Notes: a model not told the origin generated them from the letters alone. A stretch of 64,000 bases of DNA from a virus (IMGVR_UViG_3300009503_000019:1-64000), one strand, 5' to 3'. Positions 2,111 to 55,293 are shown, numbered from the stretch's first letter. Program-made: numbers and translations.

Positions 2111-2170
2111 AGCTTCCATATCCTTTCCTTCCCATAACCTCATCTTAGGGGGGAAACTCCCCCCTATTGA
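2111..2170 (+). ncRNA. Putative anti-SD small RNA A
   Basis: C/U-rich 35 nt with CAU+CCUUUCCUUCC and CAU+ACCUC modules, then hairpin TAGGGGGGA-aac-TCCCCCCTA (2146-2166). Confidence 0.55.
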
Positions 2171-2196
2171 CTTGTTATTTTTTTTGTTTTAATAAT
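2167..2196 (+). promoter_or_regulatory. Sigma70-type promoter, near-leaderless transcript of glycosyltransferase
   Basis: TTGACT then TAATAAT; ATG at 2204; no SD. Confidence 0.45.
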
Positions 2197-2203
2197 TGTT
2201 TTA

Positions 2204-3280
2204 ATGAATGAGAAGTTAAAAGTTCTTTTTGCAACTTCTGATGATCCAAATGTATCCGGATGTGGAGTTTATCGTGTATTGCAACCATCATTGTGGTTAT
2301 CACATTTATTCGGAGATCAGATAGAACTTATGTTTACCGATGTTCTTATGGAAGAAGACATGTATAAGCAGGACATATTTTATTTCACCCGTCAGGCAAA
2401 ACCCGATGTTGTTAATTATGTTGAAAAAATGAAAAAAGAGACAAATAAATTTGTTGTACTCGATTTTGATGATAATTTGAATGCAATTCCTCCTCACATA
2501 GCACATGCCCAAAAGTATTACAATGAGAACAAATCTTATTTGAGAAAAATGATGCAATTGTCCGATTTATTCGTCTTTACACATACATATCTTGCTGAAC
2601 AAACAATTAACACAAATGGGATAAGAAAACCGTTTATTTTATTACCAAATGCAGTGAATGTTGATTATCTAAAAAATCATCCGGATGAAGAAGATAATTG
2701 TGTGAGAATAGGCTGGTTCGGGTCATATACACACAAATATGATTTAGCAATAATTAGGGGGATGATGGAAGAAGTTTATAAGAAATTGAATGGTCAAAAG
2801 AAAATTAAATTGTTCACTATAGGTCCTCCAAAAGAATTCATTCCAGAGTATTTATTTATTTCAAATAATCCTCCATTTGAATGGAAGCATTTATACTGGC
2901 AACCGACGATAAAATACTTAGAAACTATTTTAGATTTGAAAATTCATATAGGACTTGCTCCATTAGAAGATACTTATTTCAATAGATGCAAATCCAATTT
3001 GAAGATGCTTGAATATGTGTGGTGTGGAGCGGTTCCGCTTGCATCCGATGTTTATCCCTATTCAGAGGCATTCACTGCTTATAAACAATACACACATTGT
3101 GAAAATAGATTCAAAGACTGGATTTCAAAATTGATAACATTAATAATGAATTCTGATTTGCGTAAACAAATCCATGATGAATTGAAAAAAGAATTGAATG
3201 AGAAATGGAGTTGTAAAGTTGTATATCAAAAATTTGGAGAAGAATTGCTATCTAAATATAGAGAATTGAATAATAAATAA
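2204..3280 (+). CDS. Glycosyltransferase, GT-B (GT4-like)
   Basis: GCGVYRVLQP, DFDDNL, LPNAVN, IGWFGSYTH, IGLAPLED..FNRCKSNLKMLEY. Confidence 0.85.
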   Translation: MNEKLKVLFATSDDPNVSGCGVYRVLQPSLWLSHLFGDQIELMFTDVLMEEDMYKQDIFYFTRQAKPDVVNYVEKMKKETNKFVVLDFDDNLNAIPPHIAHAQKYYNENKSYLRKMMQLSDLFVFTHTYLAEQTINTNGIRKPFILLPNAVNVDYLKNHPDEEDNCVRIGWFGSYTHKYDLAIIRGMMEEVYKKLNGQKKIKLFTIGPPKEFIPEYLFISNNPPFEWKHLYWQPTIKYLETILDLKIHIGLAPLEDTYFNRCKSNLKMLEYVWCGAVPLASDVYPYSEAFTAYKQYTHCENRFKDWISKLITLIMNSDLRKQIHDELKKELNEKWSCKVVYQKFGEELLSKYRELNNK

Positions 3281-3294
3281 TTCTTTCTTATAAT
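3266..3294 (+). promoter_or_regulatory. Sigma70-type promoter, near-leaderless
   Basis: TTGAAT-17-TATAAT; in-frame ATG at 3304, no SD. Confidence 0.6.
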
Positions 3295-3303
3295 AAAATG
3301 ACA

Positions 3304-4506
3304 ATGTTAAAAAACATTATAAATTTTTATTTAGACGACATTAATATATTTCCGATAAATCTATATGAAGAAGTTATTACATGTTTGCCTGAAACTGTAA
3401 TTTGTTCATTGGACGATAATGAAAGTTTGATTATTCCTAAATATTTTCCAGATACAAAAAAAATAAAATTGTATTTAAAAAGTTCAATCAAAAATAATAA
3501 TGTTGTTGATATTTTTGAGACTTATAATAATACTGGCGATCTGAAAAACGTTTGGAAAACAAACTCTAATTTTGTCTCTTTAGAATTGGTTTCTTTAGAG
3601 ACAAAGATGATGAAAATACAATTGACAAAGAGCACTTCAAAAGATTCTATGATTTACAGAAGCTATTTCCCGACTATCGATTGGACTAACTTTGATGGCG
3701 TTAAATTTAAATGGTTTCAATCTGATTTCGGCAGTAATTTCAATTTTTATATATACGATGGTAAAGTAAAATTGGTAAAAAATATAGAACCTAAAAATGA
3801 ACAAAATTTTGAGGATATATTTTTATTTTTCTCAGAATTCAGTCAAATTGGAACAGGAAATTTTAACTTTGCTACTATAAAAGAAATTGGATTTACAGTT
3901 TTGAGAAGTATAGAAAATACATATGTATATGTAGACGATATTTATTTATTTCCAAAAAGTGATTTCATAACGACTTATGTGGGAAATTATGATATTGATA
4001 ATAATTCTTTTACAAAAATTAAAAGTAATACCAACAAAATAAATCTCGCCTGGAATATTATCGAAATAGATACATCTGATATAAACAATTGGGATTGGAA
4101 TTATATAAAAATTTTTAAAAATCCTTCAAATTTATTCAGATGTGATTTTTATGGCAGTTCGGAAGAATCTAATAGTATCTTCAAAATTGATTCTAATAAC
4201 ACTTTATCTCAAATAAGCGGTAAAATATATTCAGGCTGTTTAATTTATAAAAATATAGTCAGGATAAGTCGAATTGTGCTGTATCCTGACACAGAGTTCA
4301 ATGGGGATATAATCAAAATATACAAATATGATTTTACAATCAGCACTTTTCAAATATTATTTTACAATCCGGCGTTTGGAAGAGAAATTGTAATTGATAT
4401 TAACGATGTTTGTATGAACGGAAGAATTTTTTTAGAAATCTTGCGAAAAAGTAATATTAAACAAATAACTGCAATAATTGAATTTGAAGAAGGGGTAATA
4501 TACTGA
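3304..4506 (+). CDS. Probable virion protein with carbohydrate-binding-like beta-sandwich
   Basis: DWTNFDGVKFKW...FNFATIKEIGF...VYVDDI pattern is typical of galactose-binding/CBM folds. Start moved from 3298 to 3304 on promoter spacing. Confidence 0.5.
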   Translation: MLKNIINFYLDDINIFPINLYEEVITCLPETVICSLDDNESLIIPKYFPDTKKIKLYLKSSIKNNNVVDIFETYNNTGDLKNVWKTNSNFVSLELVSLETKMMKIQLTKSTSKDSMIYRSYFPTIDWTNFDGVKFKWFQSDFGSNFNFYIYDGKVKLVKNIEPKNEQNFEDIFLFFSEFSQIGTGNFNFATIKEIGFTVLRSIENTYVYVDDIYLFPKSDFITTYVGNYDIDNNSFTKIKSNTNKINLAWNIIEIDTSDINNWDWNYIKIFKNPSNLFRCDFYGSSEESNSIFKIDSNNTLSQISGKIYSGCLIYKNIVRISRIVLYPDTEFNGDIIKIYKYDFTISTFQILFYNPAFGREIVIDINDVCMNGRIFLEILRKSNIKQITAIIEFEEGVIY

Positions 4507-8820: not shown

Positions 8821-8832
8821 TTTTGTTATAAA
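8821..8832 (+). promoter_or_regulatory. Phage promoter motif TTTTGTTATAAA (drives sRNA B)
   Basis: Exact 12-mer found 8 times upstream of transcription units. Confidence 0.7.
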
Positions 8833-8838
8833 ATAAAT

Positions 8839-8900
8839 AACCTTCATACTTACCTCCTTACCATATCCCTTCCTCATGGGGAGAGCATTTGCTCTCCCTT
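8839..8900 (+). ncRNA. Putative anti-SD small RNA B
   Basis: Contains CAU-ACUU-ACCUCCUUA (16S 3'-end-like) and CAU-AU-CCCUUCCU, then hairpin GGGAGAGC-attt-GCTCTCCC (8879-8898). Confidence 0.6.
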
Positions 8901-13891: not shown

Positions 13892-14416
13892 ATGTTTAAT
13901 AAATACGTGCTTAAACAAATATTTAAACAAGACTTGACTAAATATTTTTGTTTGATTATATTTAAAAGTATGAATGAACCGTGGTATGAAATATTTGTAT
14001 ATTTAGAAGGGGAAATAGTAAAATTTTTTAAATTTTTAAGAAAGGTTCAAGATTATGATAAAGATATTTATAAAAAAATACCCAATGTTTTGCAAGAATA
14101 CATAATTTCACATTTATTCAAACTAGGTTTAGAAAAACATATGATTCCTTTTCCAGAATATAGACCTTTTCTAAATAAAGGGAATAGAATTGATTTAGTA
14201 TGGTTTTCGTATGAAGGATTAATAGATTCCGCTTTTGAGGTTGGTCGTCCTAAAATGAGAGATATAAAAAAATTATTAAGTTTAGGAAGATATTGTGACA
14301 AATATATAATTTTTGTAAATAAAGACAGAAATGAAAAATTTTATCAATTATGTAAATATGCAGAATCAAATGGTATAAAATTATTAGATTTAAGTTGGAC
14401 TTTGGGATTTAAATAA
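13892..14416 (+). CDS. Possible PD-(D/E)XK restriction-endonuclease-like protein
   Basis: PEY...RIDLVW...AFEV pattern; start uncertain. Confidence 0.45.
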   Translation: MFNKYVLKQIFKQDLTKYFCLIIFKSMNEPWYEIFVYLEGEIVKFFKFLRKVQDYDKDIYKKIPNVLQEYIISHLFKLGLEKHMIPFPEYRPFLNKGNRIDLVWFSYEGLIDSAFEVGRPKMRDIKKLLSLGRYCDKYIIFVNKDRNEKFYQLCKYAESNGIKLLDLSWTLGFK

Positions 14417-18858: not shown

Positions 18859-18887
18859 TTGACTTAATCATTATAATATAATAGAAT
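18859..18887 (+). promoter_or_regulatory. Sigma70-type promoter, near-leaderless
   Basis: TTGACT-17-TAGAAT; ATG at 18896; no SD. Confidence 0.6.
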
Positions 18888-18895
18888 CATATTCA

Positions 18896-19117
18896 ATGGA
18901 TTTAGACAAAATAGCATATATTGCATGGTGCATAATATTCTTAATTCTTTGCTTTATTATAGCTAAAAATTTGAAAGTTCCAGAAATAGTTTTAGATATC
19001 ACTATTATGGTGGCTTTTCTTTTGATCATCAGCCTTGTTTATTTCCATTTAATTTTTTTTACATTTCTTGCAATTTCTATATTTGCTCTCCTTTATGTGC
19101 TTCGTATAAAATCTTAA
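18896..19117 (+). CDS. Small membrane protein
   Basis: About 3 hydrophobic helices in 73 aa. Confidence 0.6.
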   Translation: MDLDKIAYIAWCIIFLILCFIIAKNLKVPEIVLDITIMVAFLLIISLVYFHLIFFTFLAISIFALLYVLRIKS

Positions 19118-33953: not shown

Positions 33954-33962
33954 AAATGCAAC

Positions 33963-38504: not shown

Positions 38505-38533
38505 TTGAATTTATAACAAAAAATTGATAAATT
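38505..38533 (+). promoter_or_regulatory. Sigma70-type promoter, near-leaderless RNAP mRNA
   Basis: TTGAAT-17-TAAATT with TG; ATG at 38543; no SD. Overlaps the divergent RT promoter. Confidence 0.6.
38510..38521 (-). promoter_or_regulatory. Promoter motif TTTTGTTATAAA (RT-Ubl operon)
   Basis: Exact motif. Confidence 0.7.
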
Positions 38534-38542
38534 TAATGTCAA

Positions 38543-41500
38543 ATGCTGAAAGGGTATATTGAAGCTATTCAGAATCTCTTTCCCATTGATTCCCCAAATT
38601 ATACAATTAATGTATCTAATATAACGCCTAAGATCAAAGAAGATGTTTTTATTCCTGAGAATATAAAAAAAATGAAATTGGAAGGAAAGATTTTGACTAC
38701 TCCTATATATGCAGATGTTACAATTACTGACAAAAATGGTAAAGTTATTAGTTCCAGGAAACAGATGAAGATTGCAGAAATACCTGCACTTATTCCTGCA
38801 ACAAATTCTTATCTTGGAGGTAAAGGTAAAGAAATTACTATATTGGGTCAATTTAGATTCAAGCCAGGAATTTATACTATAATTCCATCTTCTGGTAATG
38901 TTAAAACAACTTTTCATTTAAAAGGTACGAGTTTTCATCTGACAAGCGATGCAGGAAAATTATATTTCACTGTAGATTCAAAACATTTCGCTATCTATCC
39001 AATATTAAAATTTTTTGGTATTACTGATAATGATATTATTAATAATTTTGGAAATAAATTTTTAGAGGATAATAAAATAGATATTTCTCCTGCAGAAATG
39101 GAAAGATTGATAAAGAGATTTTACAAAAATATTTCAAGAGATCAACGTTCCGAAGATGAGATTAGTATCAATGATATTATAACATATTTTTCAGGTAATA
39201 TTTTTGATCCGAATGTAAACAAAGTCACATTAGGTCAGGATTTTTCTCAATTAAATAAAGAAACATTATTAGCAGCTATTAAGAAATTTTTAAATGTTTC
39301 TACTGGAGTTGAACCACCAGATTCAAAAGATTTATTAATATTTAAAAGATTTCATAATGTAAATGATTTTATTAAAGAACGTATAGAAGGTCTTAAATGG
39401 CAATTAAAAAAGAAAATTCAGCGAAATCTTGAATTACATCCAGAGGAGATTCGCCGGGTTTTACCTACTGGATTATTGTCTAAACCATCGTTTGAATTAT
39501 TGAATTCTTCAGTAGCGTCTATGGAAAAATATACTAATCCCGCATCAATATTATCGGCAATGACGAAAATGACTTATCTTGGGGAAGGAGGATTACAGAC
39601 TGAATATGCCGCTACACCAGAAATGCGAAATTTCAATTTTTCTATGCTTTCAACCTTAGATCCTATACAAATGCCAGAGTCTGAGAAAATTGGGTTAGTT
39701 TTTCATGCTGCTTTGGGTGCTAATGTAGATAATCAAGGTAATATAACTAAAATTGTTTTCAATCATAAAACTGGAAAATATGAAACAATAAGTGGAACTG
39801 ATTTCTGGATAAAAAATATTGCTTTTCCTGATCAATATGAAAACGGTAAATTCAAGAATCCAAATTCAGTTAAAGTTATGAATGAAGGTAAAATAAAATA
39901 TGTAAAATCTAAAGATGTAGATTATATTCTTCCTATGAGTACTTCTTTTTCAATGCTTAGTTCGTTAATTCCAATGATTTCATCATTCCATCCTACAAGA
40001 GCTTTAATTGCTTCTAAAATGATTGGGCAAGCTTTGGCATTAAAGAATAAAGAAGCGCCTTTAGTTCAAAGTGAGATCCCTTCAGAATTATTAGAAATCA
40101 GGAAACAATTACATCCTGAATTGACTGGTGCCTTATCTGATCATTTAGAACATTCTAATTCCTTTGAAGAATTATTAGGTGCAAAATATTCTGTTGTTTC
40201 CCCAGTTAATGGAACGGTTACGTTAGTATCCAAAGATGAAATTGTCATTACTGATAAAAAAGGAGAAAAATACAGATTTCCTCTATATAATAATTTTCCC
40301 GTATATCCAGATTCTTTTATTCATCAGGAGCCTATAGTAAAAGTTGGTGATAAAGTTTCAAAAGGGATGCCATTAGCTAAAAGTAATTTTACTGATGGTA
40401 AAACATTAGCATTAGGTACTAATTTATTAACGGCTTATATACCTTTTAAAGGGTATAATTATGAAGATGCTATAGTTATATCAGAGAGTGCATCAAAAAA
40501 ATTGACTTCAGAAAGAATTATACATGAATATTTTGAAATTCGAGAGGGTATGATTCTTGATAAAAATAAATTTAGAGCAATTTTTCCAACATTATTATTA
40601 GAAGAAAATGCACGCAAATTAGATGATGATGGTGTAGTCAAAAAAGGAGCAATTGTTAAAAAAGGAGAAATTTTAATTGCGGCATTAATGCCTCGTATTA
40701 TAACTCCAGATGAATATCAACTTATGCGTATACACAGGAAATTAGTGCCTAAGTATCGTGATGCTTCATTAGTATGGAATAGGGAGAACGACGGAGAAGT
40801 TATAGAAGTGCGCAAAACAAGACATTCAATAAGTTTATTAATAAAAACATCAGATCCTGCTGAGATTGGTGATAAATTGGTAGGACGATTTGGTGAAAAA
40901 GGGCTCATTGCTTATATAGTTCCAGATAGTGAAATGCCAAGAACTAAAGATGGAAAGGTAATTGATGTCATTTTTAATCCATTAAGTGTTATTTCAAGAA
41001 TTAATACTGGACAATTAGTAGAACTTGCATTAGGTAAAGTTGCTCAGAAACAAGGAAAACCAATTTATGTTCCTTTATTCACAAAACAAAATTATGTAGA
41101 ATATGCAAAAAAATTATTGAAAGATCATGGATTATCCGACACCGAAACATTAATTGATCCAAAAACTGGAAAAGAAATACCTAATGTGATGGTTGGTCCA
41201 AAATATATATTTAAATTGGAACATGAGATTAAAGATAAATTAGATGCTCGTTACAAAGGTTCTTACGATATGGATTTAGCACCTGCTAGACAAGGAGAAG
41301 AAGGGGCAAAAGCATTAGATACTTATACTGCATATGGATTATTTGCACATGGAGCACTAGCAAATTTAAAAGAAATGGCAACATATAAAGCAGAGAAGAA
41401 TGATGCATTCTGGGATGCAATTGAAAATGGTTTTATGTTGCCAGCACCTAAACCTACATTTGCAATGGATAAATTTTTAGCAATGTTAAAATCTGCAGGG

Positions 41501-44500
41501 ATAAATGTTGAAAAACAAGGTACAACTTTTAGATTATTACCCCTAACTGATAAAGATGTCACTGAAATTGCAAAAATAAAAATAGAAAATCCGAGGACGG
41601 TATCTGGTGCAGAATTAAAACCCGAAAAAGGAGGTTTATTTGACCCGGCATTAGGAGGATTAACAGGAACACGCTGGGGATATATTCAATTAGCTGAACC
41701 GATGCCAAATCCTATCGTAGAAAAAGCATTATTACAAATATTACAATTAAGTTCTGCTCAATTTGAAGATTTGATTGCTGGTAAAACTGTTAATGGTATT
41801 CAAGGAATAGAAGGATTAAAACAATACTTAAAAAATTTAGATATTGATAAATTAATTACTCAGTATCAAGAAATGGCAAAGAATGCTCGTTTAGATGAAT
41901 TGGATAAATATAATAGAATAATAAGATTTTTAAAAGGACTAAAAGAAGCTAAAATAAAACCAGAATCATTAATAATAACAAAAATACCAGTAATTCCACC
42001 AAAAATGAGACCTATTTATGTGAAAGATGATCAGGTTATTTATTCTCCATTTAATGACTTGTATAAGCATTTATTGATGGCAAATGAATTATTAGAAAGA
42101 ACAAAAGAACTTCCTGAAGAACATCGTGCTTCTATACGATTAAAAGCTTATGAAGCCTTAAAAGCTATTGCAGGATTAACTGACCCCATTTCACCTGCAT
42201 TTTCAAAACGGCCTGTTCAAGGAATTTTATCAATGATTGCAGGTCCAACTCCTAAATTAGGATATTTTCAGTCTAAACTTGCACGTAAAGAGCAAGATTT
42301 AGTAGGAAGAACTGCAATTATTCCAGAACCAGATTTACATCCTGATGAAGTTGGATTGCCGTATGAGATTGCATGGAAGATATTTGAACCATTTGTTATT
42401 CGTAAACTTATTCAGCAAGGATATACAAAAATTCAAGCTGTTAAGAATGTAGAAGATAGAACTCCTATAGCAAAAGCTGCATTAGAAGCAGTTGCAAAAG
42501 AAAGATTAGTTTTATTAAATAGAGCACCAAGTTTGCATAAATATAATATACTTGCATTCAAACCCAGACTCATTGAAGGAAATGCAATGAAAATACCTCC
42601 ATTAGTTGTTGTTGGCTTTAATGCTGATTTTGATGGCGATGAGCAGCTAGGGTCGATATTGATTTCAGTTAAAAAAGATTTTAAATTACAGAAATGGTAT
42701 TTAGATTTGATAAAAACTGGGGCCAGAATAATGTTCGATAAAAATGCGAAAATACCCATTAAATCAGATCGTGAATATTTTATTATTAATCTTGCGGATT
42801 TTCCGAGACTTCATTTAGTAGCTTCTAAAAATCATATAGATTTTTATGCAGTTCCAGACGATATTGAAGTACTGGCATACGACGAGAAAATTCATACGAT
42901 TTCATGGCAAAAAGCGACTTCATGGTCGTTACATCATAAAAGAAAAATTTGTTTTATCAATTTGAAATCAGGCAAACAAATTGTGTCTGATGATGATCCA
43001 AGGGCAGTTTATGGGATAGATCCAGTTACATTAGAATACGGACGGTGGAGACCTGCAGAAAGTATTGGTAAATTAGTGCCGGTTGTAAAAAATTTGAAAT
43101 TGCAAGAATATGTAAAGCAAATAAGCACCAAAGGTTGTCCTTACTGGAAATTGAAGAATTGTCTAAAAGAAACAATAGAATTGAATGAGGAATTTGGTTA
43201 CTTACTTGGTTATATTATAGGCGACGGCTGGATATCTTATACAAAAGACGAAGAAAAAAATGTAAGCATTGCTATTGATCCAAAAAATTCAGAGCTCAAA
43301 AAACATTTGATTTCAATAACGAAAAAACTTTTCAATAAAAAATATAATCTCATTAGTGAACAAAAAGTATCAAAATCAAAGTGGCAATCTTCCAAAATAA
43401 CAATCAATTCCAAACAACTTGCATGGTTAATTTCTCCATGGATTGGTAAAAATGCAGAAAATAAACATTTACCTCCATTTACATTAATTTCTCCGGAAGA
43501 ATTCAGACGAGGATTATTAGCTGGTTTAATTGATTCAGATGGTAGCATCTCAATCTCTCATGCTAAGTCCAAACCACAATTACTTATAAATTTATCAACT
43601 GCAAGCATACGACTGGCACAGGAAATACAATTGCTAGCAAAAAGTTTAGGAATCCCTGCTTCTATAACTGCATATAATGGTGGAATGAAAAATAGCAAAA
43701 ATTATATGATTAATTTTTCTAATTATCATTTCCAGAAAGCTAATTTGAATATTAAACATCCTGAAAAAAGAAGAAAATTGTTATCAATTTCGATTGAATC
43801 TTCTCCTGGTTTGATGTCTCATGATTTAGTTCCATTTAATTCAACACTGGCGGAAATTATTATGAAACGAATAAATCGCAATAAAGAATGGAGTTTGTAT
43901 GTAATAGTGCAGAGGTATAAAAATTTGAATTATATAACTCGTTCTTCAGCATTAAAAATTCTAAAAATTGTTGATAATGATGATCCATTATTTTTGAGAT
44001 GGAAGCAGATTGTATTGAATGATTCAATAACATGGGATCCCGTAGTTTCTTATGAACAAACTGATATTGAAGAAGATGGTTATGATATCACCGTTCCAGG
44101 ATACGAAACATTTATGAACATTGAAGGAGTGATTTTATCAAACACAATGACTATTCATACTCCTGTAACTCAGGAAGCATTAGAAGAAGCACGTAGACTT
44201 TTGCCTTCAAATAACTGGGTACATGAAGCAAAAGGGACTATATTATTGATGCCACGTCATGAGGCAATTATTGGAATCTACAGATTGACTTCTGAAGGAC
44301 GCCAATTGAATATTACTTTCAACAATGAAAAGGAAGTGGAGGATGCTTATAAAGCAAATAAGATAAATTTCAATGATATTGTCAATGTCAAGGGAATAGG
44401 CAGGACGTCGTTTGGAAGAATAATTGTTAATAAAGTTTTACCTCCTGAATTGAGAGATTATAAATCTCAAATTGATGGTTCCAAATTACATGACATATTG

Positions 44501-46039
44501 ATGAAAATTTTTAGACGAGACCAAAAATTAGGAACTGATATTTCACATTATCTTGACAAAATAGGTAAAGAATTTGCATACTTATCTGGATATAGTTTAA
44601 GTTTGGATGATATAACACCAATTGATTTATCTGATATAAATCGTAAAATCAGAGAAACTATGCCGAAATTATCTTCTGATAAAGAAAGGCAAAAATTTTT
44701 ATCAGAATTAGCAGATAAAATAGATCAAAGGGTAATGTCTTCTAAAAGCCGATTAGTAGAGGCAATTAAATCTCGTGCAAGAGGAAAAGTTATTGATGCT
44801 AGACAAATTATAGGTGCACCTATTGTTGCAACTGATATTAATGACAATATTATACCCGCTCCTGTGAATACCAGTTATGCAGCAGGAATGTCTTTTTCAG
44901 ATTGGTTTAAATCAATATTTGGAGGAAGAAAAGCGGCAATAGATAAAGTAACTTCAGTGAGTGAACCTGGGATGATGACTAAAGAATTATTTTCAGCAAT
45001 GTCTTCATTTCGTATAGTAGAGCATGATTGCGGAACTAAAAATGGTGTTGAAATGGATTTAAATGAAGCGGATGCGTTAGATTATTGTTTAGCAGAAAAT
45101 ATTTATTCTCATGGAAGATTAATAGCAAAAAGGAATTCACCATTAACTTCAGATGTTGTAAATGCCTTAGTTGCACACAAAATAAATAGAGTTAAAGTTA
45201 GAACACCATTAACATGTGAATCCATAGATGGAGTTTGTCAATTATGTTATGGATTGGATAAATTCGGGCAATTTCCATCAATTGGAGAATATGTTGGAAT
45301 TAAAGCTGCACAATATATAGGCGAGCCGATGACACAATTAATTCTTTCAAGAGCCCATTTTGGTGGAACCAAAGGTGCACCATCATTACAGGGATATAAA
45401 TTATTTGAAAACATATTAAATTTTTCACCTTCAATTCGTCCTCGTGCAACACTTGCTAAATTAGATGGGAGAGTTCAAAAAATTTTGATTAATCCGGACG
45501 GATCTAAAGATGTGTTAATAGATGGAGTTAGTCATCCTGTTTCAAGAGAAAGTGTGGTTACAGTTAAAACTGGAGAAATTGTAAAAAAAGGACAACAAAT
45601 TTCAGAAGGAATTCCGCATCCTGTAGATGTATATGCTACTAGAGGGATGATGGAAATGAGAAAATATTTGTCAGAGCAATTAAGAAAAATATATTATGAT
45701 AATGGACTTAAAGTGGATAAAAGAATGTTTGATGTATTGGCAAAGGCTATGACAAATACCGGAATTATTACTGATCCTGGTGATTCTGATTATATAATAG
45801 GAGATAAAGTTTCAATAGATAAAATAGAAAATAAAAATAAAGAATTGAAGCACCCAATAAAATATACACCTGTTTTTCGTGGATTGCCCCATCAAGTCTT
45901 GCTTTCAACAGATTGGTTGAATAGAATTTCAAGAAAGGATATAAAAAATACATTGGTAGAAGGAACGATTAGGCAGTGGACTGGAGATATTTCAAGGTAT
46001 CCAATACCTGCATTCGCTTATGGAGTTGAGCTAAAGTGA
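38543..46039 (+). CDS. rpoBC: Fused beta-beta' multi-subunit-type RNA polymerase, intein-containing
   Basis: Beta motifs: GYNYEDAI, GDKLVGRFGEKG, NPLSVISRIN. Beta' motifs: LNRAPSLH, NADFDGD, bridge helix, GEPMTQL trigger loop, C-terminal Zn Cys. Junction at about 41510. Confidence 0.97.
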   Translation: MLKGYIEAIQNLFPIDSPNYTINVSNITPKIKEDVFIPENIKKMKLEGKILTTPIYADVTITDKNGKVISSRKQMKIAEIPALIPATNSYLGGKGKEITILGQFRFKPGIYTIIPSSGNVKTTFHLKGTSFHLTSDAGKLYFTVDSKHFAIYPILKFFGITDNDIINNFGNKFLEDNKIDISPAEMERLIKRFYKNISRDQRSEDEISINDIITYFSGNIFDPNVNKVTLGQDFSQLNKETLLAAIKKFLNVSTGVEPPDSKDLLIFKRFHNVNDFIKERIEGLKWQLKKKIQRNLELHPEEIRRVLPTGLLSKPSFELLNSSVASMEKYTNPASILSAMTKMTYLGEGGLQTEYAATPEMRNFNFSMLSTLDPIQMPESEKIGLVFHAALGANVDNQGNITKIVFNHKTGKYETISGTDFWIKNIAFPDQYENGKFKNPNSVKVMNEGKIKYVKSKDVDYILPMSTSFSMLSSLIPMISSFHPTRALIASKMIGQALALKNKEAPLVQSEIPSELLEIRKQLHPELTGALSDHLEHSNSFEELLGAKYSVVSPVNGTVTLVSKDEIVITDKKGEKYRFPLYNNFPVYPDSFIHQEPIVKVGDKVSKGMPLAKSNFTDGKTLALGTNLLTAYIPFKGYNYEDAIVISESASKKLTSERIIHEYFEIREGMILDKNKFRAIFPTLLLEENARKLDDDGVVKKGAIVKKGEILIAALMPRIITPDEYQLMRIHRKLVPKYRDASLVWNRENDGEVIEVRKTRHSISLLIKTSDPAEIGDKLVGRFGEKGLIAYIVPDSEMPRTKDGKVIDVIFNPLSVISRINTGQLVELALGKVAQKQGKPIYVPLFTKQNYVEYAKKLLKDHGLSDTETLIDPKTGKEIPNVMVGPKYIFKLEHEIKDKLDARYKGSYDMDLAPARQGEEGAKALDTYTAYGLFAHGALANLKEMATYKAEKNDAFWDAIENGFMLPAPKPTFAMDKFLAMLKSAGINVEKQGTTFRLLPLTDKDVTEIAKIKIENPRTVSGAELKPEKGGLFDPALGGLTGTRWGYIQLAEPMPNPIVEKALLQILQLSSAQFEDLIAGKTVNGIQGIEGLKQYLKNLDIDKLITQYQEMAKNARLDELDKYNRIIRFLKGLKEAKIKPESLIITKIPVIPPKMRPIYVKDDQVIYSPFNDLYKHLLMANELLERTKELPEEHRASIRLKAYEALKAIAGLTDPISPAFSKRPVQGILSMIAGPTPKLGYFQSKLARKEQDLVGRTAIIPEPDLHPDEVGLPYEIAWKIFEPFVIRKLIQQGYTKIQAVKNVEDRTPIAKAALEAVAKERLVLLNRAPSLHKYNILAFKPRLIEGNAMKIPPLVVVGFNADFDGDEQLGSILISVKKDFKLQKWYLDLIKTGARIMFDKNAKIPIKSDREYFIINLADFPRLHLVASKNHIDFYAVPDDIEVLAYDEKIHTISWQKATSWSLHHKRKICFINLKSGKQIVSDDDPRAVYGIDPVTLEYGRWRPAESIGKLVPVVKNLKLQEYVKQISTKGCPYWKLKNCLKETIELNEEFGYLLGYIIGDGWISYTKDEEKNVSIAIDPKNSELKKHLISITKKLFNKKYNLISEQKVSKSKWQSSKITINSKQLAWLISPWIGKNAENKHLPPFTLISPEEFRRGLLAGLIDSDGSISISHAKSKPQLLINLSTASIRLAQEIQLLAKSLGIPASITAYNGGMKNSKNYMINFSNYHFQKANLNIKHPEKRRKLLSISIESSPGLMSHDLVPFNSTLAEIIMKRINRNKEWSLYVIVQRYKNLNYITRSSALKILKIVDNDDPLFLRWKQIVLNDSITWDPVVSYEQTDIEEDGYDITVPGYETFMNIEGVILSNTMTIHTPVTQEALEEARRLLPSNNWVHEAKGTILLMPRHEAIIGIYRLTSEGRQLNITFNNEKEVEDAYKANKINFNDIVNVKGIGRTSFGRIIVNKVLPPELRDYKSQIDGSKLHDILMKIFRRDQKLGTDISHYLDKIGKEFAYLSGYSLSLDDITPIDLSDINRKIRETMPKLSSDKERQKFLSELADKIDQRVMSSKSRLVEAIKSRARGKVIDARQIIGAPIVATDINDNIIPAPVNTSYAAGMSFSDWFKSIFGGRKAAIDKVTSVSEPGMMTKELFSAMSSFRIVEHDCGTKNGVEMDLNEADALDYCLAENIYSHGRLIAKRNSPLTSDVVNALVAHKINRVKVRTPLTCESIDGVCQLCYGLDKFGQFPSIGEYVGIKAAQYIGEPMTQLILSRAHFGGTKGAPSLQGYKLFENILNFSPSIRPRATLAKLDGRVQKILINPDGSKDVLIDGVSHPVSRESVVTVKTGEIVKKGQQISEGIPHPVDVYATRGMMEMRKYLSEQLRKIYYDNGLKVDKRMFDVLAKAMTNTGIITDPGDSDYIIGDKVSIDKIENKNKELKHPIKYTPVFRGLPHQVLLSTDWLNRISRKDIKNTLVEGTIRQWTGDISRYPIPAFAYGVELK
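42641..44143 (+). mobile_element. 501-aa intein with LAGLIDADG homing endonuclease
   Basis: Removing it restores NADFDGD-TMTIH. Contains YLLGYIIGDG and LLAGLIDSDG; ends YDITVPG...ILSN/T. Confidence 0.9.
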
Positions 46040-47873: not shown

Positions 47874-47902
47874 TTGACTTTAAATTTTTAATTTTGTAAA
47901 AT
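47874..47902 (+). promoter_or_regulatory. Sigma70-type promoter, near-leaderless
   Basis: TTGACT-17-TAAAAT; ATG at 47911; no SD. Confidence 0.65.
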
Positions 47903-47910
47903 CATTAAAA

Positions 47911-49902
47911 ATGTTAAAGACAAGTGAAAATTTTTATCAACTTTCAGATGATCCTTCATCATGGATTCCAGAGATTTCTCATATTTTTTCAGAACAGTTC
48001 CCGGAATTAGCAGAATTTGGTGCAGAAGTTAAGCTTTCTAAAGTAAATCCTGAAATTGGATTTGCTTTAGGCAGTATAACGATATTTTCTGATGTTGATG
48101 AAGTTCATATTCCTATTGTTATTCGTGAAAAAAAATTAGCTCCATTTGATATATTTGAGTATAAAAAAACTTATTATCCACTAAAGTCTTCAAAAATTAT
48201 AAATATACTGTATGCAGGTAAATTAGGATCACCTGTTGCTGCAATTCCTACCGAACGAGCAACACAACCGACAATGCTCGGTGAAATAATGCCACCTCCT
48301 TTCGGCTTGGGACCGCGCGCTGAATATTATACTGAAGTTAGGAGTTTGCCTAAAGGGGCATCATCATTATTTTTATCAATTTCAAAATCAACTTTTAGTG
48401 AAGAAGTAAAAAAAGCATATGACAAATTTATAAAAATAGCTCAATCATTGTCTTTGGTAGATACGGTTAGAACAATTTTAGACAAAATTTTATCTTTACA
48501 GAGTGGAATTGTTTCAGCAAAGAGTTATTTGAAAAATGAAATACGCCGGGTTCGTAGAAATGCATTTTTAATTAAAAAAATAGGACCAGATCAATATCAG
48601 ATTATTTTTAATCCAATCAACGAAATTTCCATGTCTTCTGCTGTAGTTAATTCAGATGGAATTATAAAATTATTAACTGCATTGAAATATGATATTCCTA
48701 CCGCATTTACAGATTTAGATTCTGGAAAAGTTATTTATTTTTCGCCTGAAATGCAACAATTAGTTCCTATTATACTCGAAAAAATAGATGGTCAACCTGT
48801 AATTAGTCCAGGAAAATATGTATTTATTACAGCTAATGGCAAAATTATTAGAGGATTGGTTATTAAAAATCTTTTTGGTGGTTGGATGTTATGGTCCGAT
48901 CCTTATGCAATATCAGATTCTTTATATGGTGTGAAAGAATCTGATTATATTGAAAAAACTCCATTTGTAGATGAATGTTCTCCAGGACAGACAATTTTAT
49001 TACGAATCATTTCTTGTAATAACTCTATAGGATTGGGTCCAATTAAAGTCTTCAGAGTTATTTCAAAAAGAGCTTCCTGTGAAGCAAAGCCTGTGATGAA
49101 ACTTGAAAATGCAGAATTTCCAAAGCTTATTGGTAAGATTTTGACGATAACTGGTAAATATGGAGATTTTCCAATAAAGATAGAAATTAGCCCCTTTAAA
49201 AATGAGAATAAAATAATTAATTTACAAAAAAGTGCAATAGGCGAAATAGAAATTACAATTTGTGGAGCACCTGTTGATATACTTCCTGTAACTTATGAAG
49301 TTACTTTACCAACTAACGAGCAGGAATTCTATGATTATTTGTCATTGTTCAAACGACCTGTTAATGTTGAATATCTTGGTGATGAAACTTATATGATTGC
49401 AAGTAATGGTGAAAAATATAAAGTTGATGGAACAGACAAATTAGTTTTATCATTGATATCAATGACAATACCAAAAGAGAGTGCTATGAAAATTGCTTCT
49501 GCAACCAAAACGGTTAGGAAATTAACACTTCTTGGTCCAAGTTTAACGAATAAAAAAGAAATTCCATTAGAAAAGATAGGAGTATCAAGTCAAAAGATAA
49601 AAGATATTCTTGGGATATCCGATGATTTAATAAAATCCGCAATTGTATCAAGAGAAGGATTAACAATTGATACTGTATTTTCTTTAAATTTAATAACACC
49701 ACAGAATATTCAAAAATTTATTGAATCCGTGCCTATAATCAGAGAAACCGTGAATCATCTTGCAAAATTACTTATATTTTCAAGATTAGGTTTCAAAGAA
49801 TTTTCAGAAGAAGATTTATCTTACTTAATGAAAAAATTAGATGAAATTGCTGATAAATTAGAATCATTAAAAATAATCTATAAATTAAAATCAATGGCAT
49901 AA
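47911..49902 (+). CDS. Large hypothetical protein (probable head-associated)
   Basis: 663 aa; several KxA motifs (KGASS, KIASA, KSAI). Confidence 0.7.
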   Translation: MLKTSENFYQLSDDPSSWIPEISHIFSEQFPELAEFGAEVKLSKVNPEIGFALGSITIFSDVDEVHIPIVIREKKLAPFDIFEYKKTYYPLKSSKIINILYAGKLGSPVAAIPTERATQPTMLGEIMPPPFGLGPRAEYYTEVRSLPKGASSLFLSISKSTFSEEVKKAYDKFIKIAQSLSLVDTVRTILDKILSLQSGIVSAKSYLKNEIRRVRRNAFLIKKIGPDQYQIIFNPINEISMSSAVVNSDGIIKLLTALKYDIPTAFTDLDSGKVIYFSPEMQQLVPIILEKIDGQPVISPGKYVFITANGKIIRGLVIKNLFGGWMLWSDPYAISDSLYGVKESDYIEKTPFVDECSPGQTILLRIISCNNSIGLGPIKVFRVISKRASCEAKPVMKLENAEFPKLIGKILTITGKYGDFPIKIEISPFKNENKIINLQKSAIGEIEITICGAPVDILPVTYEVTLPTNEQEFYDYLSLFKRPVNVEYLGDETYMIASNGEKYKVDGTDKLVLSLISMTIPKESAMKIASATKTVRKLTLLGPSLTNKKEIPLEKIGVSSQKIKDILGISDDLIKSAIVSREGLTIDTVFSLNLITPQNIQKFIESVPIIRETVNHLAKLLIFSRLGFKEFSEEDLSYLMKKLDEIADKLESLKIIYKLKSMA

Positions 49903-49908
49903 ACATAG

Positions 49909-49937
49909 TTGAAAAAATTATGAGGTTTTATTAAAAT
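49909..49937 (+). promoter_or_regulatory. Sigma70-type promoter of sRNA C
   Basis: TTGAAA-17-TAAAAT; predicted TSS 49944; no ORF downstream on this strand. Confidence 0.65.
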
Positions 49938-49943
49938 GTTTTC

Positions 49944-50013
49944 AGCCCATGCCCTTCTCTTCCTCCTCCATACACGCCTCCTGCAGGAGGGAGACAACAA
50001 TCTCCCTCCTGAT
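49944..50013 (+). ncRNA. Putative anti-SD small RNA C
   Basis: CAU-GCCCUUCUCUUCCUCCUC and CAU-ACACG-CCUCCUG, then an 11-bp hairpin at 49984-50011. Confidence 0.6.
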
Positions 50014-50026: not shown

Positions 50027-50386
50027 TTATCCTCCTTTTACTACTGTTCTAATAAAAGTTTGTGTTCCTCTTAATGGTCGAAATGGTACTGGTTCAGGAT
50101 ATCTTTCAATTATTTTTATTGGATAAAAATACAATTTATTCGGGAATCCCCACCATTTCATTGCTTCTTCTTGTGTGACTTTATGAATTGCTCTTAATTT
50201 TTCAAATTCTTTTCTTGATATCAATTTTGGTTCTTGTAATGAAATAATTCCCAGTATTCCTTCCGGTCCAACAAGTGCTAATGGAATATTTATCATTTTT
50301 GGATAATATCTTTTCTTCAGTAAAGCTTTTTTCTTTTGTTCAATTATCCATTGTGCGTGTGGAGAGATTATATATATTCCACGCAT
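50027..50386 (-). CDS. ASCH/PUA-like domain protein
   Basis: GIYIISPHAQWI..KKK...GILGII.L motif. Confidence 0.6.
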   Translation of the reverse strand: MRGIYIISPHAQWIIEQKKKALLKKRYYPKMINIPLALVGPEGILGIISLQEPKLISRKEFEKLRAIHKVTQEEAMKWWGFPNKLYFYPIKIIERYPEPVPFRPLRGTQTFIRTVVKGG

Positions 50387-50392
50387 GAAGGA

Positions 50393-50421
50393 ATTTTAGA
50401 AAAAATTGTTATAATATTCAA
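50393..50421 (-). promoter_or_regulatory. Sigma70-type promoter, leaderless ASCH mRNA
   Basis: TTGAAT-17-TAAAAT; ATG 7 nt after the -10. Confidence 0.65.
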
Positions 50422-51805: not shown

Positions 51806-51834
51806 TTGCATTTTTTTTAATTATTGTTTATAAT
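51806..51834 (+). promoter_or_regulatory. Sigma70-type promoter, leaderless
   Basis: TTGCAT-17-TATAAT; in-frame ATG at 51842. Confidence 0.6.
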
Positions 51835-51841
51835 AATTCTT

Positions 51842-52621
51842 ATGAAATTACCATTTAGAAGATTTCTTGCTGCACTTATTGTTGATAGCCCTAATGATAT
51901 TAATTTGATCAAACGTATTCTTAGTGAATGCGGAATATTTATAACAGATAATGACGATATTTTAAGTTTCAGAGCTCGCATATTCAATAAATTCAAGCGT
52001 ATTCCTAAAAATAAGAATTTGACATTTAAGAAATTGGGTTTAACAGAATATTTAGAAAATAAAGAAAAAGGTAATATAGATTTTCTTGGGGCATATTTTG
52101 CACAAAAAGATCAATTTTTGAGAAAAGCATTTCAAGCATATATTTTTACTCATAACGAGAAATTTTTAGATTTTATTCCATCACAAAATAAAGAAACTGA
52201 AATAAATATATTTAAAAAATACTTTTTTGATATTGATAATTTATCTTTAGCAGAATGGACATATTATAAGAAATTTATTTCAGGAGCAGATGTGTTATTT
52301 TTAAATGCATTATTAAATAATGATTTGGGATTAGCCCTTCATTATCTCAAAAGGTCTATACCACCATCGGTTGAAGAGGGATTATCAAAATTATTATCAA
52401 TTTCATACTGGAGGGCAATGGAAACTGCTTATAATGCAGACCCATCTGATTTTATCAAACTATCGGACACTTTCTTAAAAATATATAAAGCATCCAAGGA
52501 CGTTTTAATTGAAAAGAAAAAAGAAACTTTACCTGATTTAATCTTTGAAGAGAAAAATCCAGAAGAAGATGAAAGGTTAGTTTCCTATGACGAACTTGGA
52601 AAACAATCAAAAACAAAGTAA
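51842..52621 (+). CDS. Hypothetical protein, candidate small terminase
   Basis: Immediately precedes and overlaps terL; helical. Confidence 0.45.
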   Translation: MKLPFRRFLAALIVDSPNDINLIKRILSECGIFITDNDDILSFRARIFNKFKRIPKNKNLTFKKLGLTEYLENKEKGNIDFLGAYFAQKDQFLRKAFQAYIFTHNEKFLDFIPSQNKETEINIFKKYFFDIDNLSLAEWTYYKKFISGADVLFLNALLNNDLGLALHYLKRSIPPSVEEGLSKLLSISYWRAMETAYNADPSDFIKLSDTFLKIYKASKDVLIEKKKETLPDLIFEEKNPEEDERLVSYDELGKQSKTK

Positions 52622-54155
52622 AATTTCTCGCGCAGATATTGCTCAAAAAATTCTTTATTTGAGAGGAAACCCATTTTCTTTGAATGAACGGCCACATTTA
52701 AAATTTATTTATGATTATGCAGATAAGGTCTGGGTCATAAAAGCAGGTAGACAGGTAGAGAAATCTACTACATTGGCAGCAATTATTCTTACAGAATCGA
52801 TAATAATTCCACATTTTAATTCTTTATATGTAACTTATTCTAATAAGCAGGTTTCTGATTTCTCTTCAGATAAGATTGTTCCTATGATATTACATTCTCC
52901 ATTTGTAAGAAATTATTATCATTCCGGTGAAGTTGTGAAAAGAGTTACAGACAGAACTTTTACAAATGGCTCACATATTTTTTTGAGATCTGCATATAAT
53001 AATCCAGAAACATTAAGAGGTATTCCTGCCGATAGAGTAGTTTTCGATGAGGTTCAGAATTTGATTCCTGAAGTTATTTATGTAGCTGAGGAATCACTTG
53101 CTCATAGCAAATATCAATGGAAGATATTTTCAGGCACGGCAAAAACGAGAAATAATCTTATAGAGACTTACTGGAATCTTTCAAAGCAAATAGAGTATAT
53201 GATTAAATGTGAAGCGTGTAATAATTGGAATTATCAGGATGAAAAAATTATAGGTAAGGATTCTTATATATGTACTAAATGTGGGAAGAAAATTGATATC
53301 AGGAATGGAAGATTTGTAATGCTTAATCCATCAGGCAAATTTATGGGAATTCGTATTACTCAAGTTATGGTTCCATGGATGACTTTTGAAAATATTAAAG
53401 AAAAATTTGAGTTAAAGCCAATGTCTTATTTTTATAATGAAGTCCTCGGACTTCCTTATGAATCAATGGAACAGCCCGTTACAGAATTAGAACTTCGTCA
53501 ATGTTGTTCCGACTACCCAATGAATCTGGATTTTGTGAAATCAATTCCTTATGAATCAATTATTGTAGGTATTGACTGGGGAATGGGATTGAATTCTTCT
53601 ACTGTTGTGACAATAGGGCATCTACATGCGGGTAAAGCTCGTGTTTTGTATGCAGTTCGTATTATGGAAACAGATGCAGTAAAGCAATATGAACAGATTA
53701 AAAATTTATTATCATATTGTAAAGCGTCTATTATAATTACTGATTTTGGTGCGGGATTTGGCTTAAATGACATGTTAAGAAGAGATTTTAATATGGTTAT
53801 TCCAGTTTTATATACAGAAGGTGGTGTGGGAAAGGTTTTAAAATGGGATACAAAAGGAAAAAAATATATTGCGTTGAGAACACCATTATTGAATATTGTT
53901 TTCAGTTCTTTAAAACGGCAGGATATCATATTTCCTAAATATGAGAATATAAAAGATTTTTTACAGGATATAATGAATGTTTATGTTGATTACAGAACAG
54001 TTAAAGGAAGAGAAATTCCATATTATACTCATAATGTGCAAGAATATGATGATTTTTTACATAGCCTTACTTATTTCTTAATTGGATGCTGGTTATATTC
54101 TGGAAAACAATATTTATTTACGTCAGTTGCGGAATTTCCAAGAGAATTTGAGTAA
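52587..54155 (+). CDS. terL: Terminase large subunit
   Basis: KAGRQVEKST (Walker A region), VVFDEVQ (Walker B), CEAC..CTKC, nuclease GIDWG...DFG...DDFLHS. Confidence 0.92.
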   Translation: MTNLENNQKQSKISRADIAQKILYLRGNPFSLNERPHLKFIYDYADKVWVIKAGRQVEKSTTLAAIILTESIIIPHFNSLYVTYSNKQVSDFSSDKIVPMILHSPFVRNYYHSGEVVKRVTDRTFTNGSHIFLRSAYNNPETLRGIPADRVVFDEVQNLIPEVIYVAEESLAHSKYQWKIFSGTAKTRNNLIETYWNLSKQIEYMIKCEACNNWNYQDEKIIGKDSYICTKCGKKIDIRNGRFVMLNPSGKFMGIRITQVMVPWMTFENIKEKFELKPMSYFYNEVLGLPYESMEQPVTELELRQCCSDYPMNLDFVKSIPYESIIVGIDWGMGLNSSTVVTIGHLHAGKARVLYAVRIMETDAVKQYEQIKNLLSYCKASIIITDFGAGFGLNDMLRRDFNMVIPVLYTEGGVGKVLKWDTKGKKYIALRTPLLNIVFSSLKRQDIIFPKYENIKDFLQDIMNVYVDYRTVKGREIPYYTHNVQEYDDFLHSLTYFLIGCWLYSGKQYLFTSVAEFPREFE

Positions 54156-54157
54156 AT

Positions 54158-54186
54158 TTGACATCATTTAAAAAAAATTGTATTAT
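54158..54186 (+). promoter_or_regulatory. Sigma70-type promoter, leaderless
   Basis: TTGACA-17-TATTAT; in-frame ATG at 54193, exactly 7 nt downstream. Confidence 0.7.
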
Positions 54187-54192
54187 ATTCTT

Positions 54193-55293
54193 ATGTTTAA
54201 AACTGCAATAAAACTTGATGAAGATGCGATAAGTCTTCTGGCTTCTGTAGCTGCTAATGATTATATAGAGAACAATACTCCACCTGCAGAAGCAATCGCT
54301 AAAGTAATAGTTGAACAAGGATATGAACTTACGCCAGAGCAAGTTTCGAGAATTGCTGAAAAAACTAATAACTATATATATTTGCAGTTATTAAAAACTA
54401 AAAAACAACCTCCTAAATTTCCAGTTGCAAAACGTGATGATATATTAAAAATTATTGATCAAAAAATTCATCCTCCTGAAAAAACCGCTAATCATCCTAT
54501 ATCTTCGTTATTTGATAAAGAATTGAAAGATTATTCTGATTTATTCGACAGATATATTGAACAATTATTATCCAAAACTGGTAGTAAAGAAATTGAAAAA
54601 GACAAGATTTCATCTCCATCCATTCCTTATTTTGAAGTTGTTGATGATTTGAAAAAGTTTAAATTTATTGTTGAGGATGAAATTGAAAAAATTGAATCTG
54701 GGCGATTTGAAACTTTGAATAGTATGATTAAAAAGGCGGCAAATGAAATAGTTAATAATGAATTAAAATTAACTGATTTTGTCAAATTCATATTCAAAAC
54801 TGCAAATAATGAAGTATTAGCACAGGAAATTATTTTAGAACTTGATAAAGAATTAAATAAACTCGGATTTAATAAATATGCAAATCAACCTAAATATTTA
54901 ATTAGACAATCTCCTATGCAATATACATATACTTTGACAACAATTATGGATCAGGATGCTTACAGAGATGCCCTATACAAACTTCCAACTATAACGAATG
55001 ACTGGATTATGTATCTGGAGAAAACAATGAGTGATTTGATAGAAATGAATAAAATCGCAGAATCAGTACCAGAAACAATATTAATAAAGATTTTAAATGA
55101 TGTTGTTGTTCCAGCGCATAATGCGGGATTATTTAAGAAATCTCAAGAAGCTGCAATATGGGCAAAATCTACACTTTCAAAGGAACCATGGTATAAAAGC
55201 TTTTTTAGTCTCAAGAAAGGACTGAAAGCAGTTAAGAGTCATGGATTATGGTCTTTATTTGGAACATTTCTTGAACCGGGGTTGAAGATATGA
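54193..55293 (+). CDS. Head-module protein with multiple KxA motifs
   Basis: MFKTA, EKTA, FKTA, NKYA, NKIA. Confidence 0.65.
   Translation: MFKTAIKLDEDAISLLASVAANDYIENNTPPAEAIAKVIVEQGYELTPEQVSRIAEKTNNYIYLQLLKTKKQPPKFPVAKRDDILKIIDQKIHPPEKTANHPISSLFDKELKDYSDLFDRYIEQLLSKTGSKEIEKDKISSPSIPYFEVVDDLKKFKFIVEDEIEKIESGRFETLNSMIKKAANEIVNNELKLTDFVKFIFKTANNEVLAQEIILELDKELNKLGFNKYANQPKYLIRQSPMQYTYTLTTIMDQDAYRDALYKLPTITNDWIMYLEKTMSDLIEMNKIAESVPETILIKILNDVVVPAHNAGLFKKSQEAAIWAKSTLSKEPWYKSFFSLKKGLKAVKSHGLWSLFGTFLEPGLKI

Follow-up and report, generated by a model that had tools for sequence, protein, structure and literature searches.

Can a phage that equips many of its genes with very strong Shine-Dalgarno (SD) sequences express other operons from messenger RNAs (mRNAs) that begin at the initiation codon itself? 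This question is raised by the virus record IMGVR_UViG_3300009503_000019 (121,041 bp, 29.7% GC, CheckV completeness 66%), whose first 64 kb, a stretch of 64,000 nucleotides hereafter called the window, contain a series of operon heads with a promoter placed directly in front of an ATG. The record derives from a tailed phage to which isolates are only remotely related, with portal protein identities of 26% to Salmonella phage Arash and 24% to the Vibrio phages D69 and D181. As detailed below, about 25 operon heads of this phage lie behind sigma70-type promoters and, judging from a promoter geometry that puts the deduced transcription start at or next to the ATG, very likely give rise to leaderless mRNAs.

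The initial annotation had singled out 11 genes of the window in which a -35/-10 promoter immediately precedes the ATG and an SD is missing. Direct reading and alignment of these sites bore out both parts of this description: all 11 consist of TTG(A/C)nn, a spacer of exactly 17 bp, TAnnnT and an ATG 6-9 nt further on, and a GGAG-type motif is present in none. A case in point is the head of the portal gene (30893..30930, plus strand; TTGACT-17-TAGTAT, 6 nt, ATG 30928), where an in-frame stop lies four codons upstream. For the whole record, 166 genes were called with a codon-usage score and each candidate start was scored for an SD and for a promoter ending 5-10 nt upstream, with ATG being required by the classifier. 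This procedure returned 24 leaderless-type genes, nine of them from the 11 sites, two additional ones in the window and 13 beyond it [64143, 64580, 72919 (minus strand), 75002, 75662, 98433 (minus), 104541 (minus), 105524, 109470, 112586 (minus), 114510 (minus), 114623 and 116596]. The two additional genes are 13970 (13934..13972, plus strand; TTGACT-17-TATATT, 7 nt, ATG 13970), which opens a 149-aa open reading frame (ORF), and 30292 (30255..30294, plus strand; TTGATT-17-TAAATT, 8 nt, ATG 30292), which is conserved in the related contigs L001 and L005. Genes 2204 and 18896 from the original set share the layout but fall below the classifier thresholds, and 2204, which had been designated the weakest match, indeed has TAATAA as its -10 element.

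The leaderless promoters conform to the consensus TTGA.T-N17-TA.AAT, individual sites matching it at 8-12 out of 12 positions. A sigma70-type holoenzyme starts transcription about 7 nt past the -10 element; at 25 sites the distance between this element and the ATG is 6 nt (ten sites), 7 nt (five), 8 nt (six), 9 nt (three) or 10 nt (one). A pyrimidine directly precedes the ATG at 14 of the 15 sites that are spaced by 7 nt or less (P = 6e-4), which fits the usual preference of transcription starts for a pyrimidine at -1 and a purine at +1. Moreover, none of the 24 sites matches AAGGAGGTGA by at least 4 nt within 22 nt, and 98 other genes match it by 5-9 nt.

Several observations weigh against leaderless initiation, the first of which is how readily such promoters are found. 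Promoter-like sites (TTGnnn-17-TAnnnT, matching the consensus at 9 or more of 12 positions) number 59 in the whole record compared to 55 ± 7.7 in 200 block dinucleotide shuffles, and an independent scanner reported 109 promoter-like matches with 117 ± 12 expected in a 20-kb stretch. With hexamer pairs no more frequent than expected in DNA this rich in AT, a lone hexamer match means little and a single site could be chance; in addition, the -10 or -35 element is weak at sites 2204, 38543 and 30292. A total equal to the shuffle expectation is what would be seen if TTG...TA...T pairs near an ATG arose without function in DNA of 29% GC, yet this explanation is almost certainly wrong when the position of the ATG is taken into account. 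At 20 of the 59 sites an ATG lies 6-8 nt past the -10 element, versus 3.6 ± 1.9 in the 200 shuffles (maximum 10), the histogram of -10-to-ATG distances has a sharp peak at precisely these values, and the ATGs in question open real ORFs. By contrast, in the first 50 kb of Staphylococcus phage K, which is likewise of 29% GC, none of 45 promoter-like sites has an ORF-opening ATG at 6-9 nt, the ATGs being found 19-40 nt away as expected of leadered mRNAs. Similarly, none of three promoter-like sites is leaderless in 30 kb of Salmonella phage Arash. Together with the retention of the pattern in relatives, these results refute chance for the set as a whole, although chance may still account for individual weak sites, 2204 for example.

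Relatives of the phage were collected through protein look-ups and sort into three lineages: the window itself, contigs L001-L004 with L012 (portal 90% identical to that of the window), and L005, L006, L010, L011 and L015 (69-83%). A single-sequence search with the portal protein revealed no relatives in IMG/VR and none among the species genomes. Comparison of nine orthologous leaderless sites in 15 pairs, with relatives at 69-90% protein identity, showed that the -35 hexamer is 92% and the -10 hexamer 88% identical, versus only 70% for the spacer between them. All 25 instances have a spacer length of 17 bp, and the -10-to-ATG distance shifts by 2 nt at most. Thus, the portal head has the same geometry in L001 and in L005, which is 73% identical in DNA and has lost one codon, yet keeps TTGATT-17-TAAAGT-6-ATG. 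The head of gene 47911, encoding a 663-aa protein (47874..47913, plus strand; TTGACT-17-TAAAAT, 8 nt, ATG 47911), is identical in hexamers and spacing in L012 and L010 and differs in the sequence of the spacer. For the gene of a fused beta-beta' RNA polymerase (38505..38545, plus strand; TTGAAT-17-TAAATT, 9 nt, ATG 38543), L010 retains TTGCAA-17-TAAATT-8-ATG, with the divergent promoter displaced. A blind scan of the relatives identified leaderless heads at 5 of 10, 4 of 11, 3 of 8 and 2 of 4 promoter-like sites, with ORF lengths matching the public gene calls.

We also considered whether leaderless geometry is a trait of the wider group of phages carrying an RNA polymerase, a notion that we rejected on finding that Arash (53% GC) and L016 (43% GC), a relative by its sigma factor, are SD-led; the leaderless habit therefore belongs to this AT-rich clade. 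In Arash (L013, 120000-150000), SD-led starts in several intergenic regions are preceded, at a distance of about 30 nt, by a GGTATAAG / CTTATACC motif. This motif may be the promoter of that group and bears a loose likeness to the second promoter class described below.

Leaderless initiation presupposes that the ATGs behind the promoters are the true starts. The initial annotation had revised several ORF starts on these grounds, and the revisions at four genes hold: the alternatives are TTG or ATG codons located inside the promoter, where the relatives have in-frame stops. The new starts are those of gene 3304 (3266..3306, plus strand; TTGAAT-17-TATAAT, 9 nt, ATG 3304), gene 33105 (33069..33107, plus strand; TTGATT-17-TATAAT, 7 nt, ATG 33105), gene 51842 upstream of the large terminase gene (51806..51844, plus strand; TTGCAT-17-TATAAT, 7 nt, ATG 51842) and gene 54193 (54158..54195, plus strand; TTGACA-17-TATTAT, 6 nt, ATG 54193), and they replace 3298, the TTG at 33039, 51824 and 54178, respectively. 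The ATG at 3298 is just 3 nt past the -10 element and hence upstream of the expected transcription start, and relatives of gene 54193 have an in-frame stop four codons upstream. Public gene calls on the relatives give proteins of equal length, including 98 aa for the product of 33105. Seven of the 11 genes have no start codon in frame upstream of the ATG, a stop being located 3-12 codons back. Gene 2204 (2167..2206, plus strand; TTGACT-17-TAATAA, 8 nt, ATG 2204), preceded directly by a GC hairpin, also has no in-frame start upstream, and the PHROG glycosyltransferase profile aligns with its product from residue 16. The same lack of an upstream start applies to gene 18896 (18859..18898, plus strand; TTGACT-17-TAGAAT, 8 nt, ATG 18896). 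Within 80 codons downstream, no SD-led alternative start was found, except for one weak TTG in the RNA polymerase gene.

Substitutions among the three lineages support the same starts. In the first eight codons, identity is 81, 87 and 58% at codon positions 1, 2 and 3, respectively, and third-position substitutions set in at codon 2, indicating that purifying selection on the protein begins at the ATG. All leaderless starts are ATG, but this is not an independent test as the classifier demanded ATG. Gene callers thus misplace the starts at 3298, 33039, 51824 and 54178, and prediction of starts and promoters for such phages should allow leaders of zero length. Two observations may be added here. 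A possible extra leaderless start is located at 113599 on the minus strand (TGATATAAT, 7 nt, ATG), 9 nt inside an ORF called from 113608. The ORF at 18896-19117, a lone plus-strand ORF in an early block on the minus strand, encodes a strongly hydrophobic peptide of 73 aa with probably two or three membrane helices.

On the basis that ATGs are enriched at a defined position, that the hexamers are conserved, that the spacing is 17 bp and that the coding substitution pattern starts with the first codon, we consider it very likely that these operon heads are expressed from leaderless mRNAs. A sigma70-type polymerase would begin at the A of the AUG of the first gene or 1-3 nt before it, and the 70S ribosome with initiator tRNA would bind the 5'-terminal AUG directly, with no pairing to an SD. 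Direct binding of this kind to 5'-terminal AUGs is stimulated by initiation factor (IF) 2 and opposed by IF3. Later cistrons of the same units would use an SD of their own or 4-nt overlaps of the ATGA type. Such overlaps, by which downstream genes had been proposed to be coupled, occur 24 times in the genome, 14 of them in the window.

Alternatively, transcripts could start further upstream and be translated independently of an SD, through re-initiation or from an AU-rich unstructured leader, with the hexamers representing weak internal promoters or having another role. Among the 24 leaderless genes, eight lie no more than 40 nt behind a gene on the same strand, so that longer transcripts could also cover them, and the portal gene starts 9 nt past the preceding stop. 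The absence of any excess of promoter-like matches over shuffles is likewise compatible with this alternative, as is the fact that other genes of the genome without an SD depend on overlaps. It leaves unexplained, however, why a -35 element is conserved at exactly 17 bp and why the hexamers outdo the spacers in conservation. Furthermore, 16 sites lie at strand switches or after gaps, with no adjacent same-strand gene upstream, and some divergent intergenic regions measure just 47-65 bp, with no room for a leader. Finally, both the 6-nt peak in the distance distribution and a pyrimidine at -1 point to transcription starts and not to translation. Taken together, we regard upstream-started transcripts as a quite improbable explanation for these sites.

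The remaining counterpoints limit the leaderless interpretation in extent. A spacing of 9-10 nt would mean leaders of 2-4 nt instead of zero. In addition, six -35/-10 promoters are followed by leaders, for example those of gene 57961 and of the replication operon at 91873. The former (57901..57963, plus strand) has TTGACA-17-TAAAAT, a 31-nt leader, TAAGGAGGT and ATG 57961, demonstrating that promoters of the first class are not always leaderless; a search for 57961 as the major capsid protein gave no family match. In the replication operon leader, beyond the window, a CCTCC-TTAAA-GGAGG hairpin (91819-91840) that follows TTGACA-17-TATATT would sequester the first SD.

About 15% of the genes are leaderless and account for roughly half of the recognizable promoters, very strong SDs being present in about 60% of the genes. 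Functions could be assigned to the portal, the RNA polymerase, the gene ahead of the large terminase (the neighbor of GpA_ATPase) and the glycosyltransferase, as well as to an ATP-dependent DNA ligase, a baseplate wedge protein and a tape-measure-like protein; for most leaderless-headed genes, searches of PHROGs and Pfam returned no function. The set also includes gene 33963 (33925..33965, plus strand; TTGACA-17-TAATAT preceded by TG at the -10 element, 9 nt, ATG 33963) and gene 50386, encoding a 119-aa protein (50384..50421, minus strand; TTGAAT-17-TAAAAT, 6 nt, ATG 50386). The replication genes (polymerase and two helicases) are SD-led, likewise most genes between 57 and 69 kb. Half of the leaderless units (12 of 24) are monocistronic. 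Downstream cistrons of the others are mostly joined by overlaps, and a strong SD is present in 10 of 22 of them versus 32 of 42 in other promoter-headed units (Fisher P = 0.025). From this gene content, leaderless heads may serve for proteins that are required in few copies, a suggestion that also has to be counted among the points of doubt because few annotations stand behind it. Low or separately regulated output is probable for the portal, the polymerase, the pre-terminase gene, the baseplate and tape-measure-like proteins and the ligase, and zero-length leaders would also economize on space where divergent genes share a back-to-back control region of 64-160 bp.

How are the SD-led genes transcribed? 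In a second promoter class, which lacks a -35 element, a T-run precedes the extended -10 element TGTTATAAA (TG-n-TATAAA); the genes behind it have a short leader and a strong SD of the AAGGAGG(TG) type. TTTTGTTATAAA occurs 11 times compared to 0.36 expected, and the proposal that early-type promoters go with strong SDs is supported by the finding that 19 genes behind this motif have a strong SD, two have a weak one or none, and not a single one is leaderless. An example is the RT operon, in which the T-run and TGTTATAAA (38510..38518, minus strand) are followed by a leader of about 30 nt with a GGAGG SD and the RT gene starts with the ATG at 38477. Transcription from this class would give a short leader with a strong AAGGAGG, and with two promoter classes that have different leaders, promoter class appears to be tied to the mode of translation initiation. 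The link is strong but not absolute across the clade, given that in L015 the ATG of the SLT transglycosylase gene (5205) lies 7 nt behind a TGTTATAAA promoter, an arrangement that makes the gene leaderless; the SLT gene of the window (8928) is SD-led and located about 90 nt downstream of a TGTTATAAA-type promoter.

The two classes frequently meet in divergent intergenic regions of 47-160 bp, many of which pair an SD-led with a leaderless gene, the SD-led gene being driven by a TGTTATAAA promoter in several of them. At three places, 38505-38533, 30255-30283 and 50393-50421, the 17-bp spacer of the leaderless promoter even contains the TGTTATAA -10 element of the opposite strand, so that both promoters cannot be occupied at once. 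The first involves the RNA polymerase gene and, on the other strand, the TGTTATAAA promoter of the RT operon, with which the leaderless promoter overlaps. The idea of the RNA polymerase promoter as a mere mirror of this divergent element was rejected, since L010 keeps the promoter although the divergent element has moved.

The phage encodes candidate readers of these promoters. A sigma70-family factor of 233 aa (1370..2071, plus strand) could read one promoter class. Its matches to NCBIfam and Pfam are weak but consistent over residues 3-230 (sigma2, sigma3 and sigma4), and the Pfam models of sigma regions 2 and 4 gave no match in a genome-level search. A sequence match to WhiG was obtained in the PDB (E = 4e-4), and an AlphaFold2 model (pLDDT 75) matches sigma factors only in the PDB, 117 of them at E of 1e-3 or below (including WhiG, SigA, SigS and SigB). 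Homologues at 35-90% identity are found on metagenome contigs, and one of them is named a specialised sigma subunit by JGI. The fused beta-beta' multisubunit RNA polymerase (2498 aa; 38543..46039, plus strand) was recognized from Pfam domains on a homologue and from tblastn matches to phage and bacterial rpoB/rpoC. It contains intein and LAGLIDADG domains, and the version in L010 (1172-7159) has only 1995 aa, showing that the inteins are lineage-specific. In all lineages the polymerase gene is followed by a gene for a pyruvoyl-dependent arginine decarboxylase; a protein atlas search with the latter returned mixed taxa that point to no host. Desulfovibrio was also dismissed as a host candidate, because the only indication, a sigma copy of 41% identity on a 2-kb contig binned in a Desulfovibrio metagenome-assembled genome, is too weak and belongs to a distant branch of higher GC. 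In purified Arash virions beta, beta' and sigma have been detected, with beta as the most abundant protein found (PMC10585845). It is a possibility that an injected phage enzyme reads the TGTTATAAA class and the host sigma-A polymerase the leaderless class.

The initial annotation had further connected the leaderless heads with three putative small RNAs (sRNAs) complementary to SDs. In each of these CU-rich elements a promoter-like sequence is combined with about 40 nt of unpaired, CU-rich RNA and with a stable hairpin, the promoter classes being mixed. Element A (2096..2170, plus strand) consists of TGaTATAAT, a 40-nt unpaired CU-rich stretch and a GC hairpin. Element B (8821..8900, plus strand) contains ACCTCCTTA and a hairpin with no T-run after it, and may instead be the 5' leader of the SLT gene 8928, the SD of which could pair with CCTCCTT in cis. 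Element C (49909..50013, plus strand) is located between convergent genes, and its hairpin could equally be a bidirectional terminator. An Rfam search of the window matched no family. CU-rich stretches with CCTCC, preceded by promoter-like elements and followed by GC hairpins, exist in relatives at the genomic positions of elements C and B with other sequence, after the 47911 homologue in L012 (9480-9720) and L010 (10710-10950) and before the SLT gene in L015 (about 5130-5200), there with a proper T-run. This recurrence marks the CU-rich elements as a conserved feature worth separate study.

In its full form, the proposal holds that leaderless heads would escape RNAs A-C, which would block SD-led messages of the host and of the early phage genes, resulting in a takeover of translation or a temporal switch. 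The structure of the elements and their recurrence in L012, L010 and L015 speak for such a takeover, as do the lower frequency of strong SDs in downstream cistrons of leaderless units, the precedent of phage phiYS40 for a shift toward leaderless mRNAs via IF2 and IF3, and the predicted duplexes, which average -13.0 to -15.0 kcal/mol for SD-led initiation regions versus -6 to -7 kcal/mol for leaderless 5' ends. However, shuffled RNAs pair nearly as well, at -11.6 to -12.6 kcal/mol, leaving the real elements only 1.3-3.2 kcal/mol better, and composition therefore explains most of the effect. Predicted pairing sets the two mRNA types apart only in a trivial sense. Nor do the ambiguous nature of B and C, the mixed promoter classes of the three elements and the missing Rfam family favor the proposal, and no homologue of IF1 or IF3 was found among the phage genes. 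Strong SDs precede about 98 phage genes, among them those of the replication module and most of the head region, and a general SD blockade would hurt the phage, in keeping with the earlier caveat that the shut-off cannot be global at late times. The CU-rich elements thus contribute little to the case for a link with leaderless genes, and we judge the takeover model unlikely. A related scheme, equally doubtful, envisions two channels in which TGTTATAAA promoters would feed SD-led messages and TTGAnn-17-TAnnnT promoters leaderless SD-poor units, CU-rich RNAs would damp SD-dependent initiation on host and early messages, from which the leaderless channel would be exempt, and the overlapping divergent promoters would act as the switch. 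Within it, the TGTTATAAA class may be read by the phage sigma factor with the fused polymerase, perhaps delivered with the virion by analogy to the distant relative Arash. Whatever its wiring, a phage with a sigma factor and a polymerase of its own, in which initiation mode goes with promoter class, offers a compact system in which to study the balance of leaderless and SD-led expression in infection and the role of CU-rich RNAs. The sole tRNA gene of the record, tRNA-Leu(UAA), is located beyond the window (83143-83228, minus strand).

How does this organization compare to known systems? In the Thermus phage phiYS40 leaderless mRNAs make up most of the middle and late transcripts, and a rise in IF2 and a fall in IF3 are reported to occur upon infection, favoring leaderless translation (PMC3594737); in Lalka27a most transcripts start at the initiator codon (bioRxiv 10.64898/2026.04.20.719267). 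As in these Thermus phages, transcripts of the present phage would begin with an initiator codon directly behind the -10 element, and as in phiYS40, promoter class is tied to the mode of translation initiation. On the other hand, phiYS40 and Lalka27a infect Thermus hosts in which leaderless genes are the norm, and their late promoters have no -35 element or an unusual -10 element, whereas the present phage has 29% GC, full TTGAnn/17/TAnnnT promoters, very strong SDs in about 60% of its genes and its own sigma factor and multisubunit polymerase. Moreover, a shift in IF2 and IF3 is reported for phiYS40, and no IF1 or IF3 homologue was found here. The lambda cI mRNA from PRM starts at the A of the AUG and has no SD, its 5'-terminal AUG being bound by 70S ribosomes. 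Unlike cI and similar cases, which are single regulatory genes, the present set comprises about 25 operon heads that include structural and enzymatic genes.

Among bacteria, leaderless genes account for 35.9-46.1% in Deinococcus-Thermus and on average for 4.2% in Firmicutes, and in low-GC genomes the -10 element next to the ORF reads TAtAAT, sometimes with TG in front (Zheng et al. 2011). The TAnnnT at a fixed short distance upstream of the start resembles that of Actinobacteria, Deinococcus-Thermus, Lactococcus, Streptococcus and Mycoplasma. The proportion of about 15% in the present phage differs from the 4.2% of Firmicutes. C- and CU-rich small RNAs of the RsaE/RoxS type pair with SD regions. 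Like them, the CU-rich elements have a pyrimidine-rich segment predicted to be unpaired, with a terminator-like hairpin behind it, and are complementary to SDs of the GGAGG type; they have no Rfam match. Systematic leaderless transcription has precedents in Thermus phages. The present phage stands out by its low GC content, by leaderless promoters with a complete -35/-10 consensus, by very strong SDs in other genes and by encoding its own sigma factor and polymerase; judging by sequence, it would represent the first clear example of leaderless mRNAs at about half of the recognizable promoters in a phage clade of low GC content with strong SDs.

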